A DNA stretch of 11,216 nt, taken from the UHGV virus genome UHGV-0117334; one strand, given 5' to 3'. Below the pieces are notes generated by a model. It was not told where the DNA came from, ran no database searches, and was given only the letters and a program-made list of their open reading frames with translations. Positions 880 to 3,723 of this stretch are shown here, in pieces. Each line of letters opens with the position of its first letter. Position 1 is the stretch's first letter. The translations under genes and the position numbers were made by a program. This DNA comes from a virus.

Positions 880-2001
880 TTACTCAAATAACTTTTTCAC
901 TTCATCAACTGTCTGAAGATAACGTTCACCCTCAATCTCAATACCGATTGCCTGACGACCTAACTTCAGCGCGGCTTTAATAGTAGAGCCTGATCCCATA
1001 AAGAAATCGGCAACGATATCTCCGGGGCGGGAACTACTTTTTATAATATGTTCCATCATCGCTGCAGGTTTTTCACATGGGTGCTTGCCAGGATAATATT
1101 GCACAGGAGGAAACTCCCATACATCGGTATAAGGTACATCAGCAGTAACATGAAATGGGCGGCGCAAATTTTCATACTGAGCCTTCAAATCATCATACTG
1201 CTTCTTTACTTCCTCATAACGCAATTTCAGATCGCTATAACGCTTTTCATGTTCTGAATAATCAACATTAAAAGGATATGGACACGGGACACCGAGTGAA
1301 TCTGCCTTCCTGCGAAATAATTCGCATAGTTTATTAAAATCACTTAATGATGGAAGCCGCCACTGCGAATAAGAAAACCAGTGCGAACACATCTGCTTTC
1401 CTGTTGCTGAATTAATGTCTGCGGCTGATATATCTAACTGACGGCGAGCCAGCGAAAAAGCATCAATTAGTGGAGAAAAAATATTTTTTCTTAAATCTGC
1501 ACATTTTGAAGCATAACCTGACTGACCTTTAGCATAACCTGACGCGCCGTAATGCTCTGCAAATAATATTCTTTCAGTGGCAGGAAAATAAGCCCTTAAA
1601 CTTTCTTTATGACAACCGCGCCACATACCACTGGGTTTAGCCCAAATGATATGGTTCAGAACATTGAAACGGTCGCGAGTTAATAATTCAATTTTTGACG
1701 CAAGGCGAGAGCCGGTAAACATATACAGGCTGCCATTAGGGGCCAATATCCGCCAAAATTCTGCCAAAAATTCATCAATCCACCCCAAAAAGTCAGCATC
1801 GCTATCCCACTGGTTATCCCATGCGTTAGCCTTTACGCCGAAGTATGGTGGGTCTGTTGCAATCAAATTGACCGAGTTATCAGGGATGGTTTTGATAAAT
1901 TGCAGAGAATCTGCGCAAACGAGTTGCGCGCCATGAATATTAGTGGTTTTGAACATAGCTATTATTTTTTTGCCTGGGTAAGCTAACCCGGCGATGCGCA
2001 T
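880..2001 (-). CDS. orphan DNA methyltransferase, beta-class amino-MTase (N6-adenine or N4-cytosine)
   Basis: 373-aa ORF with DPPY catalytic motif near the N-terminus (LIATDPPYFG) and SAM-binding motif I near the C-terminus (DFFMGSGSTIKAA), the circularly permuted order of beta-class MTases. Carries a coiled-coil-like insert (EHEKRYSDLKLRYEEVKKQYDDLKAQYENLRR). No restriction endonuclease partner in the window. No obvious SD before ATG 2001; an alternative start exists at Met16 (~1956). Confidence 0.85.
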   Translation of the reverse strand: MRIAGLAYPGKKIIAMFKTTNIHGAQLVCADSLQFIKTIPDNSVNLIATDPPYFGVKANAWDNQWDSDADFLGWIDEFLAEFWRILAPNGSLYMFTGSRLASKIELLTRDRFNVLNHIIWAKPSGMWRGCHKESLRAYFPATERILFAEHYGASGYAKGQSGYASKCADLRKNIFSPLIDAFSLARRQLDISAADINSATGKQMCSHWFSYSQWRLPSLSDFNKLCELFRRKADSLGVPCPYPFNVDYSEHEKRYSDLKLRYEEVKKQYDDLKAQYENLRRPFHVTADVPYTDVWEFPPVQYYPGKHPCEKPAAMMEHIIKSSSRPGDIVADFFMGSGSTIKAALKLGRQAIGIEIEGERYLQTVDEVKKLFE

Positions 2002-2091
2002 CGCGGGTGGGCTTTAGGTTCAGCCTATAGCTCTGGCATGGGTTGACCGCAGGACAAGCTGCAACTTGTCCTGCGCCCACTTTTCAGGCAC

Positions 2092-2116
2092 AAAAAAACC
2101 GCCATAAAGGCGGCTT
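2092..2116 (-). terminator. rho-independent terminator candidate (minus strand)
   Basis: On the minus strand: GC stem CCGCC/GGCGG (with G-U closing pair), 5-nt loop, then a run of 7 U. Lies between the two-gene leftward operon (2704->2224) and the methyltransferase. Confidence 0.5.
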
Positions 2117-2201
2117 GTTGGCTGTTGGGTACAAAAAACCCAACTTAACAAAACAATAACTAAAAACCGTAATTTTGCCAAGCTTTTTCGTTTTTGTGCT
2201 G

Positions 2202-2219
2202 TGCGACCGTGGTCGCACA
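2202..2219. repeat. 18-bp palindrome TGCGACCGTGGTCGCACA, copy 1 of 3; SopB/ParB-type centromere-like site candidate
   Basis: Exact 18-mer shared with 6403-6420 (reverse orientation) and 8848-8865. Arms TGCGACC/GGTCGCA around a GT centre. Differs from the recalled F sopC SopB site TGGGACCACGGTCCCA by one base per arm. Intergenic, followed by TTTTT on the + strand. Confidence 0.6.
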
Positions 2220-2223
2220 GTTT

Positions 2224-2451
2224 TTAGAAAGTTGCCTGCTTATATTCATCGGTCAAAGAATATCGACCAGACCCGCTACGCTTTGCAACCCCAAAACAGA
2301 TCATCTGTTCGATGATAAATTCAACGGCAGCTTGACTCAAAAAACAGGCTTCGCTTAACTCTTTCAGGGAAATGCGTGGGTATCCACGCATAACACATTC
2401 CACACTCAGGGCCGCTTCAGTCATATTTCCACGAATTTCATTAATATTCAT
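2224..2451 (-). CDS. hypothetical small protein (75 aa), possible winged-helix DNA-binding fold
   Basis: ORF with GAGAGG SD-like sequence about 6 nt upstream of the ATG. Follows the upstream small gene closely (13-bp gap). No recognisable catalytic motif. Confidence 0.55.
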   Translation of the reverse strand: MNINEIRGNMTEAALSVECVMRGYPRISLKELSEACFLSQAAVEFIIEQMICFGVAKRSGSGRYSLTDEYKQATF

Positions 2452-2464
2452 AACGCCTCTCTAA

Positions 2465-2704
2465 TCAATCTTGAAACTGGAAATCAACATCAGCCATAAA
2501 GCGGTTCAACTCAGCCAGTTTTGGCCCCATAGTCCCAACTAAGCGACCAGCCAGTCGGTCTGCCAGGTTGGTACTGTTGAAACCATATTCCTTTTCGAAA
2601 CGTTCAACCTTCTGCCACAACTCATACAGTTCGTTAGCTATCTCCGCAACGTCGTCGCGCATTTTTTCGTTACCTTGATAATTCATAATATCCTCCAAAT
2701 TCAT
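2465..2704 (-). CDS. hypothetical small protein (79 aa as drawn; more likely 73 aa starting at the internal ATG 2686)
   Basis: ORF from the track. The internal ATG at 2684-2686 (Met7) is preceded by a strong GGAGG SD 5 nt upstream, whereas ATG 2704 has none. Divergent from the toxin-antitoxin operon. Confidence 0.55.
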   Translation of the reverse strand: MNLEDIMNYQGNEKMRDDVAEIANELYELWQKVERFEKEYGFNSTNLADRLAGRLVGTMGPKLAELNRFMADVDFQFQD

Positions 2705-2774
2705 ATAGTTAGTGGGTTATTGCCCCTCAATGACACGAACTGTAACTCTGCCAAACGAACACATCCAGTGTTAT

Positions 2775-2792
2775 TTTCACTTTTTAGTGAAA
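2775..2792. promoter_or_regulatory. palindromic operator candidate upstream of the toxin-antitoxin operon (TTTCACT-N4-AGTGAAA)
   Basis: Perfect 7-bp inverted repeat with a 4-bp T spacer, about 60 bp upstream of the toxin ATG in the divergent promoter region. Type II TA operons are typically autoregulated through such sites. Confidence 0.45.
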
Positions 2793-2850
2793 TTTTTAAT
2801 TTGCGCTTTTTTCTTGTTTTGGTGTATTTTATGGCTATGGAGGCTATAAT

Positions 2851-3174
2851 ATGTTTAACGTGATAACCCACCCTGCAGCACTGGATGAACTGCTTGAACT
2901 ACCAGATGATTTGCGAGGTCGCATGACCAGATTAATTGAGCGACTGGAGAAGGAAGGCAACAAACTGAAGATGCCCCATAGCCGTGTAATAGGTGGAGGG
3001 CTTTTTGAACTACGAGTAGGGGATAAAAACATCGCAAGAACGCTGTACGCCTACGCGACTGGTAACGAAATTTATCTATTGCATGCTTTTGTCGAAACAA
3101 CGAAATATAACAAACAGAAAACACCGGTGAAGGCTATCGAAATCGCCAGAACTCGCCTGAAGGAGATGAACTGA
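2851..3174 (+). CDS. type II toxin, Gp49-like / HigB-like (RelE/ParE superfamily)
   Basis: 107-aa ORF with the family hallmark pattern ...RTLYAYATGNEIYLLHAFVETTKYNKQKTPVKAIEIARTRL. GGAGG SD 7 nt upstream of the ATG. Stop overlaps the start of the downstream HTH gene (TGATG). Confidence 0.8.
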   Translation: MFNVITHPAALDELLELPDDLRGRMTRLIERLEKEGNKLKMPHSRVIGGGLFELRVGDKNIARTLYAYATGNEIYLLHAFVETTKYNKQKTPVKAIEIARTRLKEMN

Positions 3175-3461
3175 TGAAAGCGAAAGGCATCCCGTTTAAC
3201 GAAGTAAAAGAAAAACTTCTCAACACTCCAGAAGCCATCAAAGGATATGAAGAGGCCGATAAAGAGCTGGAGATGGTCGAAATGTTATACGAAATGAGGG
3301 AAAGAGCAGGTTTAACGAAGTCAGCTCTGGCTGAACGAATGGGATTGCGCCCGTCAGCTATCAGCCGCCTGGAAAGCAATCCTTTAGGGGCAAGCATGAA
3401 AACTTTATCAAAATATGCCCAAGCATGCGGTGCAACGATTAATATTAATGCCGTCTATTGA
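3174..3461 (+). CDS. XRE-family HTH antitoxin (HigA-like) partner of the upstream toxin
   Basis: 95-aa ORF translationally coupled to the toxin. Helix-turn-helix segment LTKSALAERMGLRPSAISRLE. Toxin-first gene order is typical of HigBA-type modules. Confidence 0.8.
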   Translation: MKAKGIPFNEVKEKLLNTPEAIKGYEEADKELEMVEMLYEMRERAGLTKSALAERMGLRPSAISRLESNPLGASMKTLSKYAQACGATININAVY

Positions 3462-3478
3462 TTAGACCCTTTTCGCTA

Positions 3479-3498
3479 CCCCGTCCAGAAGGGCGGGG
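3479..3498. terminator. hairpin between convergent genes (possible bidirectional terminator)
   Basis: CCCCGTCC-AGAA-GGGCGGGG stem-loop (8 bp with one G-U pair) between the end of the antitoxin (+) and the end of the 72-aa ORF (-). Flanking U-tracts are weak. Confidence 0.35.
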
Positions 3499-3504
3499 TG
3501 TGTA

Positions 3505-3723
3505 TCAATGATGCAAACACTCAACAGCAATAACTTGTTGGCAATTCTGAGCAATCTCCCGCGACATACTAACAAGTCGTGAAATCTCGCCAAGATGCAA
3601 GCTGGCTTCTGGAGAAGCCAGAGCAACGCTAACCAGATCCAAAACGGCGTCGATGTCTTTTAGGTTTGATCCGAGTTCTTCAAGAGTTGATACAGGTGCT
3701 TCAGTCATTGAATCTAATACCAT
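3505..3723 (-). CDS. hypothetical small acidic protein (72 aa); candidate SOS-controlled antirepressor
   Basis: ORF lies immediately downstream (minus strand) of a near-consensus LexA box and an operator-like sequence. No clear SD before the ATG, so the translation start is uncertain. Function inferred from context only. Confidence 0.4.
   Translation of the reverse strand: MVLDSMTEAPVSTLEELGSNLKDIDAVLDLVSVALASPEASLHLGEISRLVSMSREIAQNCQQVIAVECLHH

Follow-up and report, generated by a model that had tools for sequence, protein, structure and literature searches.

A gp49-gp48-type toxin-antitoxin cassette of an N15-like linear phage-plasmid, with an unusual catalytic loop in its sequenced toxin

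Do two small overlapping genes in the virus genome UHGV-0117334 form a working toxin-antitoxin module, and is the palindrome in front of them its operator? We addressed this in a stretch of 11,216 nucleotides (hereafter the window), for which a preliminary description had proposed a Gp49/HigB-like toxin, an XRE antitoxin and a palindromic operator. The reading we favor, with a probability of roughly 85%, is that an N15-like (Ravinvirus-type) linear phage-plasmid carries its gp49-gp48 toxin-antitoxin cassette at this locus; the cassette would be a type II module of the Tad-Ata/HigBA type and work by a mechanism that we infer from homology. The features of the locus are as follows (coordinates in the window):

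2775-2792, no strand assigned: inverted repeat TTTCACT-TTTT-AGTGAAA, with 100% complementary arms at 2775-2781 and 2786-2792; predicted operator.
2801-2806, + strand: predicted -35 element TTGCGC, a consensus prediction, beginning 8 nt past the palindrome.
2823-2830, + strand: predicted -10 region, TGTATT (2823-2828) or alternatively TATTTT (2825-2830, with an 18-nt spacer).
2839-2843, + strand: Shine-Dalgarno sequence GGAGG of the toxin gene, 7 nt 5' of the ATG and invariant in close relatives.
2851-3174, + strand: toxin gene with ATG start, encoding 107 aa of the Gp49/Tad/HigB-type RelE-fold ribonuclease family.
3087-3113, + strand: mutation patch unique to this toxin gene, in which 21 nt stand in place of about 9 nt, plus a synonymous A>T at 3087.
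3160-3165, + strand: Shine-Dalgarno sequence AAGGAG of the antitoxin gene, inside the 3' end of the toxin gene and 8 nt 5' of the ATG.
3174-3461, + strand: antitoxin gene, encoding 95 aa; orthologue of N15 gp48.
3477-3500, no strand assigned: GC-rich 10-bp hairpin, lacking a U-tract on both strands, within the 43 nt that separate the antitoxin gene from gp47.
3505-3723, - strand: gp47 gene, convergent with the antitoxin gene across that gap.

Gene order and DNA similarity identify the window as part of a linear phage-plasmid of the N15/phiKO2-like kind. It keeps the N15 order of lysozyme, holin, methylase, gp51, gp50, gp49-gp48 and gp47, is syntenic with genes 47-54 of N15 and phiKO2, and continues downstream with Q, Cro, a CI-type repressor and RepA. 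Escherichia phages YDC107_1 and PhiR46_1 share 94% DNA identity with the window; together with the synteny, this bears out the phage element that the preliminary description had named as the carrier. All E. coli matches (17/17) lie on plasmids. The two genes are orthologous to N15 gp49-gp48, with protein identities of 86.9% for the toxin and 86% for the antitoxin, and they share with N15 gp49-gp48 and phiKO2 Gp49-Gp48 the position between gp50 and gp47, the gene order, the coupling, the upstream dyad TTTCACT-TTTT-AGTGAAA and the predicted promoter layout. The window differs from N15 in the toxin (107 aa with K82E, K83T and a KYNK insertion, against 103 aa), in the -10 element (TGTATT/TATTTT against TATATT) and in the gap to gp47 (43 nt against ~380 nt). 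The module is already known: the N15 version has been published and RefSeq annotates relatives, labeling those of the gp49 toxin as type II RelE/ParE toxins. It therefore matters little for discovery, the N15 cassette having been experimentally described in 2007. The Pfam Gp49 family takes its name from these N15 genes.

The toxin matched the Pfam Gp49 profile (PF05973) over its full length (1-90/90) with 86.8 bits (gathering score 23.9), and also phrog_2523 (E 5e-38); the family is COG4679. For the antitoxin, Pfam HTH_3 scored 47.7 bits (cut-off 23), and both family assignments are far above chance level. A profile of the gp49 family matched Streptococcus pneumoniae HigB (6af3, E 6e-14) and Mycobacterium tuberculosis HigB1 (E 1e-8). 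The family profile was required for this, as a single-sequence PDB search with the toxin was insignificant (E 0.4); NCBIfam contained no model for the toxin, and Pfam HigB_toxin did not match it. AlphaFold2 predicted a beta-alpha-alpha-beta4-alpha structure with a long C-terminal helix (pLDDT 91.9), to which Foldseek aligned 6af4 and 7nbu with TM-scores of 0.79 and 0.74, RelE structures also being matched. The preliminary description had proposed an HMM search and had made its toxin depend on RelE/ParE-fold homology; the search places the protein above the Gp49 cut-off, the profile finds HigB structures, and the Gp49/HigB-like call holds by Pfam, HigB profile and Foldseek matches alike. The strong toxin Shine-Dalgarno sequence it had noted is present as the GGAGG at 2839-2843.

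The antitoxin combines a ~30-aa N-terminal segment with an XRE-type helix-turn-helix at residues 36-90, the latter confirmed by the HTH_3 match from the proposed HMM search. It is 100% identical to a protein of plasmid pEND_Eco 123-2 and matches phrog_1373, a transcriptional regulator; weak PDB sequence matches were to HipB, HigA2 and S. pneumoniae HigA (6af3_B), and NCBIfam gave sub-threshold matches to HipB and MqsA-type models only. The toxin-first, overlapping pair was described correctly, the toxin stop TGA (3172-3174) and the antitoxin ATG (3174-3176) having one base in common in a TGATG junction. An overlap of this kind (TGATG, TAATG or ATGA) was kept in all relatives examined, and the antitoxin Shine-Dalgarno region, GAAGGAGATGA, did not vary in six relatives. 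Two small, adjacent, co-oriented and coupled genes with an XRE-HTH antitoxin constitute the reverse (toxin-first) HigBA/Tad-Ata architecture. The N15 gp49-gp48 study reportedly found a second, weaker promoter 5' of the antitoxin gene and a bactericidal effect of toxin overexpression; inspection of the window by eye revealed no convincing internal promoter at that place.

Several characterized systems share parts of this design. Tad-Ata of Paracoccus aminophilus plasmid pAMI2, the prototype of the Tad-Ata/RelE-COG5606 group (Makarova 2009, PMC2701414), has a toxin of the same family (COG4679/DUF891/Gp49), the toxin-first order and an XRE-HTH antitoxin, but is by its description a distant relative, carried by an alphaproteobacterial plasmid and not a phage-plasmid. 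HigBA2 of Acinetobacter baumannii plasmid pAB120 is a reverse-order operon with a Gp49-domain toxin that stabilizes its plasmid; its antitoxin represses the promoter, the complex does so more strongly, and its toxin is ~20% identical to Tad-type toxins (PMC5906591). The classical HigBA of plasmid Rts1 (Proteus vulgaris) is likewise toxin-first and pairs a RelE-fold, ribosome-dependent RNase with an HTH antitoxin (PMC5906591). Its HigB belongs to another toxin sequence family, and its operators overlap -35 and -10, whereas the window dyad lies upstream of the predicted -35. S. pneumoniae HigBA (6AF3/6AF4) and M. tuberculosis HigB1 of the TAC system (7NBU/7AWK) show the Gp49-type RelE fold predicted for the window toxin, including its long C-terminal helix, at 24-28% identity. 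Both HigB toxins carry the same E-x-R, N, R, F-x-K and Q-K set, from which the window toxin lacks the lysine at F+2, and their beta4-alpha3 loop is shorter. TAC moreover needs a SecB-like chaperone, which is absent from the window, while the HTH protein HigA of S. pneumoniae binds to palindromes located upstream.

This unique change in the catalytic loop sets the window copy apart, and it probably either weakens the toxin or is an assembly error. The DNA of the patch (3087-3113) reads GTCGAAACAACGAAATATAACAAACAG in place of the ordinary allele GTAAAAAAGACACAG, which turns FVKKT-QKTP into FVETTKYNKQKTP in frame and lengthens the beta4-alpha3 catalytic loop by four residues. The reference constellation comprises a basic residue preceding beta1 together with E-x-R, N, R, F-x-K and Q-K (K58, E66, R68, N73, R77, F93, K95, Q98 and K99 of M. 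tuberculosis HigB), with residue roles taken from PMC9098466 and PMC7984235. The window toxin retains R45, E53, R55, N60, R63, F80, Q89 and K90, yet the set is incomplete: Glu (E82) stands at the F+2 lysine, Thr takes the place of the lysine after it, and Q-K is preceded by a four-residue insertion. The lysine two residues past F80 is invariant in 44/44 homologues and, by the family profile, aligns with the catalytic K95 of M. tuberculosis HigB and with S. pneumoniae K92. The "apparently intact" module of the preliminary description is thus not borne out in its toxin half. In the M. tuberculosis loop, K95, Q98 and K99 contact mRNA, and K95A abolishes toxicity (PMC9098466). In S. pneumoniae HigB, mutation of the corresponding lysine (K92A) reduces toxicity only slightly (PMC7984235). 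K82E on its own need not abolish toxicity, and one of the inserted lysines, K85 or K88, might take over from the lost one.

The window toxin is either a disarmed allele or an artefact. An assembly or sequencing artefact of a low-coverage metagenome contig, the true element having a 103-aa toxin, is a possibility that we take seriously without preferring it. The allele is confined to one SPAdes contig with a k-mer coverage of 2.33 (cov_2.327 in its name), it stands alone in the protein database, where none of the 5.8 billion clusters holds another protein with this loop, and its patch DNA has no exact match in IMG/VR viral or JGI metagenome contigs. Moreover, between 2000 and 3640, over some 1.6 kb, the window is identical to the sequenced plasmid pEND_Eco 123-2 apart from the patch and a one-T deletion at 2773, in a T-run. 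If the patch is artefactual, the cassette is simply wild-type. However, a clean in-frame replacement of 9 by 21 nt is atypical of short-read error, a search of both strands of the window for a chimera donor of the 21-nt patch returned nothing longer than 9-11 nt, and independently degraded toxin alleles, truncated or fused, are known in nature and common for the gp49 family in public data. Should the patch be genuine, an attenuated or dead toxin is most likely, and the locus would then serve mainly as an autoregulated repressor and antitoxin remnant.

It is less probable still that the cassette is fully functional, the 107-aa protein being an active ribonuclease that stabilizes the phage-plasmid by post-segregational killing. 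The reading frame is unbroken and has strong translation signals, the model of the fold has the high pLDDT given above, seven of eight residues with an implicated role in M. tuberculosis HigB remain (R45, E53, R55, N60, R63, F80 and K90), and the insertion brings two lysines; the mild defect of S. pneumoniae K92A would also agree with an active toxin. But the charge is reversed at an otherwise invariant lysine, the neighboring K83 is gone as well, the loop in contact with mRNA and 16S rRNA has gained four residues and has no counterpart in the protein database, and K95A makes M. tuberculosis HigB non-toxic. That the remodeling is real and selected, changing toxin activity, substrate preference or antitoxin sensitivity without killing the toxin, is very improbable, though it would amount to a natural loop-swap neofunctionalization in a phage-plasmid Gp49-type HigB. 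Taken together, the window copy and the truncated or fused public alleles suggest that the toxin half often decays while the antitoxin/repressor half is kept, and calls of an "intact toxin-antitoxin" system from ORF integrity alone therefore need caution.

By analogy with the systems above, an undamaged gp49-gp48 cassette would be transcribed from a single promoter into a bicistronic, translationally coupled mRNA. The first product would be a RelE-fold, ribosome-dependent mRNA endonuclease, in keeping with the ribonucleases described among Gp49-type HigB proteins (PMC9098466, PMC7984235), and the second a dimeric XRE-HTH protein whose N-terminal part may neutralize the toxin. The antitoxin, alone or more strongly with the toxin, would bind TTTCACT-N4-AGTGAAA just 5' of the predicted -35 and repress the operon, much as Gp49-type HigA represses its own promoter, with stronger repression by the complex (PMC5906591), and as S. 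pneumoniae HigBA binds palindromes 5' of its own operon (PMC7984235). On loss of the low-copy prophage, the labile antitoxin would decay and the toxin would halt growth, stabilizing the element. The title of Dziewit et al. 2007 (J Bacteriol 189:1983), as cited in PMC2701414, PMC5906591 and PMC3581621, presents N15 gp49-gp48 as a stabilizing toxin-antitoxin system. To the extent that these citations convey it, this published role of the N15 orthologue (PMC2701414, PMC5906591) agrees with the plasmid-prophage maintenance that the preliminary description had suggested.

The same description had also offered abortive infection, and a cassette that mainly defends the lysogen against phages rather than maintaining the prophage is unlikely. 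Some type II toxin-antitoxin systems do act in phage defense, and prophages often carry defense genes. However, PADLOC-DB defense-system models assigned neither protein to a system: the toxin gave a weak partial match to NsnC (E 4e-4, 17.7 bits), and the antitoxin matched generic HTH models. We found no literature on a defense role for N15, whose orthologue has replicon stabilization as its published function, and a disarmed toxin could serve in neither role.

The perfect palindrome TTTCACT-N4-AGTGAAA was correctly reported at 2775-2792, and the window contains no second copy of the pattern at up to 3 mismatches. Dinucleotide-preserving shuffles of the 164-nt intergenic region (34% GC) produced a perfect inverted repeat with 7-nt arms and a loop of 0-8 nt in 506 of 5000 cases (~10%), and the palindrome by itself, within the window, could be chance. 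It rises beyond chance because relatives show covariation. Across 43 distinct relatives, 93% of the dyad cells are paired, and 15 cells are changed on both sides, compared with 2.9 +/- 1.5 in shuffles (0/500 reached that number). The compensated variants include TTTCTCT/AGAGAAA, TTTCTAT/ATAGAAA, TTTATCT/AGATAAA, ATTCACT/AGTGAAT and TTTAGTTA/TAACTAAA. Spacing is constant, at ~76 nt to the ATG and 8 nt to the predicted -35, and the dyad keeps its distance to the ATG where the cassette sits in unrelated genomic surroundings, as on the chromosome of Xenorhabdus and at other loci that lack gp50, gp51 or gp47. Different dyad classes pair with different HTH recognition helices, in a correlation that is imperfect (relatives L007 and L010, with a CTC core, and L008, with a CAC core, all have PSAITRLE) and confounded by phylogeny. 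The constraint on the dyad is not absolute, since single left-arm mismatches are tolerated in close relatives and the Klebsiella group has AGTTAAA. Covariation of this kind is equally compatible with an RNA or DNA hairpin and with a protein site.

The predicted promoter elements are conserved relative to the palindrome: TTGnGn stands at a constant distance from it in N15, phiKO2 and more distant relatives, TGTATT aligns with TATATT and an upstream TGG of N15 and phiKO2, and alignments of relatives show a conserved GGTATATTT block in the -10 region. A stricter consensus promoter scan did not call this -35/-10 pair and returned nothing relevant on the + strand 5' of the toxin gene. The center of the palindrome would lie ~52-54 nt 5' of the predicted transcription start; the whole dyad precedes the predicted -35 and does not overlap the core promoter. 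Most type II operators overlap -35 or -10. The best reading of the dyad is nevertheless a predicted operator of the antitoxin or of the toxin-antitoxin complex. The operator of the preliminary description thus gains indirect support from covariation and from its fixed position relative to the promoter, but the site is placed 5' of the predicted -35 and not over it. The compensated dyads, the constant spacing and the helix correlation give a candidate operator for the N15-type antitoxin, and its predicted location over the UP-element region, not the core promoter, would be unusual among type II systems.

A weak rival of the operator reading, and slightly less probable than a defense role for the cassette, is that the palindrome is a + strand intrinsic terminator, insulating the toxin-antitoxin promoter or ending a small upstream transcript. 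The N15 GenBank record labels the same stem-loop a "putative rho-indep. transcription terminator" (2924-2944), TTTTTAATTT follows directly 3' of the stem in the window, four one-sided changes yield G-U pairs, and covariation would suit a hairpin equally well; a sub-threshold RyhB covariance-model match also uses the palindrome as its terminator. Yet the stem has 7 AU-rich pairs, its RNA hairpin reaches only -6.2 kcal/mol, the terminator scan made no call at the palindrome, and the T-run is not kept (TTTGCC in N15, ATTCTC in phiKO2). The 2.8 kb upstream of the palindrome within the window contain no + strand gene to terminate. In the Xenorhabdus locus, the closest upstream ORF of at least 50 aa is encoded on the opposite strand, and the closest ones on the + strand end >200 nt before the dyad. 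A constant distance to -35 is something a terminator does not need. The operator reading would correct the "terminator" label in the N15 record.

Two further candidates in this region were rejected. The only + strand promoter-like site, at 2682-2709, overlaps the start of gp50 and has no conserved counterpart in N15. The RyhB sRNA match (Rfam RF00057, 2729-2799) reached 26 bits, below the gathering score of 55; it recurs only in the near-identical relative L112 (25.3 bits) and is absent from N15, phiKO2 and KpLi5.

At the other end of the operon, the terminator scan made no call after the antitoxin gene. The 54 nt at 3462-3515, which contain the GC-rich hairpin, fold on the + strand with -22.4 kcal/mol (z = -3.45), and the hairpin at 3477-3500 is probably a transcript end or stabilizer.

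The window carries orthologues of gp49 and gp48 of the linear phage-plasmid N15. The preliminary description had reported a toxin-first pair overlapping at TGATG, with a strong Shine-Dalgarno sequence and an upstream perfect palindrome TTTCACT-N4-AGTGAAA, and all of these elements are present. The arms TTTCACT (2775-2781) and AGTGAAA (2786-2792) match perfectly around a TTTT spacer in a pattern that occurs once within the window, and the toxin stop TGA (3172-3174) shares one base with the antitoxin ATG (3174-3176).

2775-2792: palindrome (dyad) TTTCACT-TTTT-AGTGAAA
2851-3174, + strand: toxin ORF, 107 aa, ATG start, Shine-Dalgarno GGAGG at 2839-2843
3174-3461, + strand: antitoxin ORF, 95 aa, AAGGAG ahead at 3160-3165

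Profile searches bear out a Gp49/HigB-like toxin with an XRE antitoxin: the toxin matches Pfam Gp49 end to end (PF05973; 86.8 bits, cut-off 23.9) and the antitoxin matches HTH_3 (47.7 bits) and in sequence also weakly resembles HipB, HigA2 and the HigA partner chain from S. pneumoniae. The Gp49 family takes its name from the N15 protein. A profile of 45 toxin homologues retrieved S. pneumoniae HigB (6af3, E 6e-14) and M. tuberculosis HigB1 (7nbu/7awk, E 1e-8), on which an AlphaFold2 model of the toxin (pLDDT 91.9) superposed with TM-scores of 0.79 and 0.74, respectively, and ~0.6 on RelE structures. Because of these HigB matches and the RelE-like predicted fold, the toxin does have RelE/ParE-fold homology, the lack of which had been named as grounds for rejecting the assignment.

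On sequence comparison, the window is part of an N15/phiKO2-like linear phage-plasmid. It shares 94% DNA identity with Escherichia phages YDC107_1 and PhiR46_1 and 77% with phiKO2; the 17 E. coli replicons matched at 92-98% identity are all plasmids, and in PLSDB it matched 35 plasmids (92-98% identity), 34 of them non-mobilisable. Toxin and antitoxin are 86.9% and 86% identical to N15 gp49 and gp48, the surrounding genes are arranged as in N15 (lysozyme, holin, methylase, gp51, gp50, gp49-gp48, gp47), and Q, Cro, a CI-type repressor and RepA lie farther along. The module is already known: gp49-gp48 is among the loci titled a toxin-antitoxin stabilising system, as a tad-ata homologue (Dziewit et al. 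2007), and Makarova 2009 (PMC2701414), Armalyte 2018 (PMC5906591) and Sala 2012 (PMC3581621) cite it as a stabilising system. Relatives also bear the RefSeq label 'type II toxin-antitoxin system RelE/ParE family toxin'; its detection here is a rediscovery.

The dyad alone is unremarkable, since a perfect repeat with 7-nt arms and a loop of 0-8 nt arises in ~10% of dinucleotide-preserving shuffles of the intergenic region (164 nt, 34% GC). From GTDB genomes and IMG/VR we drew 79 loci whose homologues range from close to moderately distant, giving 58 distinct upstream 100-mers, 43 of which were aligned. Throughout these 43 the dyad occupies identical columns, ~76 nt upstream of the ATG and 8 nt upstream of a conserved promoter-like TTGnGn-16/17-(TGn)TATATT. 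Complementarity holds in 93% of cells, both-sided changes occur at 4 of 7 positions, and double-change cells number 15 against 2.9 +/- 1.5 in shuffles (0/500), a covariation signal abolished by sliding the partner column. Compensated dyads include TTTCTCT/AGAGAAA in Xenorhabdus, TTCTCT/AGAGAA with 6-nt arms in Erwinia, and TTTCTAT/ATAGAAA, TTTATCT/AGATAAA, ATTCACT/AGTGAAT and TTTAGTTA/TAACTAAA. Loci without gp50, gp51 and gp47, among them a chromosomal Xenorhabdus copy with unrelated genes alongside, still carry dyad and promoter, so the dyad is part of the cassette and not of the adjoining phage genes. Dyad classes also track the antitoxin recognition helix (PSAIS/TRLE with a CAC core, PSTITQLE with TTTAG...CTAAA, SQSGINSLM with CTAT, AQSALNRLE with ATCT), an imperfect correspondence, confounded by common descent. 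Gp49-type HigA proteins autorepress (PMC5906591) and bind palindromes upstream of their operon (PMC7984235). From covariation, fixed position, cassette linkage, helix tracking and this behaviour of HigA, we predict, with a probability of roughly 0.7, that the dyad is an operator for the antitoxin or the toxin-antitoxin complex. Its position would be atypical, the centre lying ~52-54 nt upstream of the predicted start, in the UP-element zone and not over the -35 or -10, a placement that depends on the predicted promoter.

That the palindrome is instead a rho-independent terminator, as the N15 record putatively annotates the same stem-loop, seems very unlikely. Its RNA folds at only -6.2 kcal/mol, a terminator scan gives no call there, the T-run on its 3' side is not conserved, and within the window no + strand gene lies in the 2.8 kb upstream; at the Xenorhabdus locus the closest ORF of at least 50 aa upstream runs on the opposite strand, and over 200 nt separate the dyad from the ends of the closest + strand ORFs of that size. 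A covariance-model match to the sRNA RyhB does use the palindrome stem as its terminator, but this match is not reproduced in other relatives beyond L112, a near-identical locus.

2729-2799, + strand: full-length, sub-threshold RyhB-model match (26 bits against a gathering score of 55; E 0.005-0.03)

As neither N15 nor phiKO2 shows it and L112 is its only recurrence, the RyhB-like sRNA is probably a chance match.

Several further features surround the predicted operator. In many Klebsiella-type and other relatives (loci L001, L003, L103, L105, L106, L010, L133 and L139), the -35 upstream of the toxin gene is followed immediately by GTGAAA, resembling a third half-site (TTGnGTGAAA); this may be an extra repressor contact overlapping the core promoter, and it is missing in the E. 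coli subgroup, including the window, which has TTGCGCTTTTTT. In the T-run left of the palindrome (2773) the closest relatives have one T more (TTATTTTTCACT, against TTATTTTCACT in the window); the shorter form is a polymorphism, as L094, L098, L102 and L111 share it in the alignment. Between gp50 and the palindrome (2733-2768), blocks CTCAAYGACACRAACTGTAACTCTG and CACATCCAG hardly change among N15, phiKO2, KpLi5 and E. coli relatives while their flanks vary, and Erwinia loci without gp50 hold similar words (AGCTCTGCC, CACGTAAAC); no convincing promoter on either strand, partition site or Rfam family accounts for them.

The earlier reading was right in family and architecture and plausible in its operator, but "apparently intact" was too generous. 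All 44 full-length homologues read F-x-K-K-T/Q/S/R followed directly by x-K/T/E-T/M-P, whereas the window toxin reads F-V-E-T-T-K-Y-N-K-Q-K-T-P: ~9 nt (AAAAAAGAC) have become 21 nt (CGAAACAACGAAATATAACAA), with a synonymous change at 3087, and 2000-3640 is otherwise identical to plasmid pEND_Eco 123-2 apart from the T lost at 2773. In a profile alignment the lost lysine, K82, corresponds to K95 of M. tuberculosis HigB and K92 of S. pneumoniae HigB. The K95A mutant is neither toxic nor able to inhibit translation, and the A-site codon is enclosed by K95, Q98 and K99 of the beta4-alpha3 loop (95-101) (PMC9098466); the S. pneumoniae K92A mutant has only a mild defect (PMC7984235). In our model the fold is kept and the enlarged loop is less confident (block 81-90, pLDDT 71). 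The allele, from ENA assembly ERZ1742538 (contig NODE_916_length_11216_cov_2.327), is a singleton among 5.8 billion protein clusters, and the lesion DNA was not found in IMG/VR or JGI metagenome contigs. We lean towards a real allele and, if it is real, consider it rather likely to be attenuated or inactive. Natural decay is plausible, as public data often hold truncated, frameshifted, internally deleted or toxin-antitoxin-fused alleles of this same toxin (independent protein database matches P0048, P0050, P0053, P0057, P0059, P0060, P0061, P0064, P0068 and P0080), some on contigs up to 242 kb; P0060, a toxin N-terminus fused to the antitoxin HTH, represents a cluster of 13 member sequences. 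Decay of the toxin with the antitoxin kept appears common in the family. The patch also creates an antisense promoter-like site, whose -10 falls within the inserted bases and is missing from the ancestral sequence.

3104-3131, - strand: TTCACC-16-TATATT with upstream TG, 9/12 matches

By homology, one promoter would give a coupled bicistronic gp49-gp48 mRNA; gp49 would be a ribosome-dependent mRNA endonuclease, which gp48 would neutralise while repressing transcription at the dyad. When the low-copy linear prophage is lost, the antitoxin would decay and growth would be arrested, stabilising the element; the killing step is doubtful in the window's copy. For the defence role by abortive infection also suggested earlier, a search with defence-system models gave no supporting evidence.

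Two flanking features concern gp50 and the far end of the cassette.

2465-2704, - strand: gp50 mechanical ORF, start at 2704
3477-3500: strong GC-rich 10 bp hairpin between convergent gp48 and gp47

The gp50 product, a YubE-family protein (PF27407), probably starts at ATG 2686 (73 aa), which has a Shine-Dalgarno GGAGGAT at 2690-2696 and is the start used by the ENA gene call, annotated relatives and phrog_4830 (profile 1-73 to residues 7-79). The 54-nt stretch holding the hairpin folds at -22.4 kcal/mol, with no U-tract on either strand; the gp48-gp47 gap is 43 nt in the window, whereas it is ~380 nt in N15. The record of pEND_Eco 123-2 (68 kb) describes it as circular. Several IMG/VR contigs of 44-92 kb hold two cassette copies in opposite orientation (loci L089/L095, L108/L109, L119/L129, L120/L124 and L123/L128), as expected if linear phage-plasmids with hairpin telomeres had been assembled into inverted dimers joined head to head.
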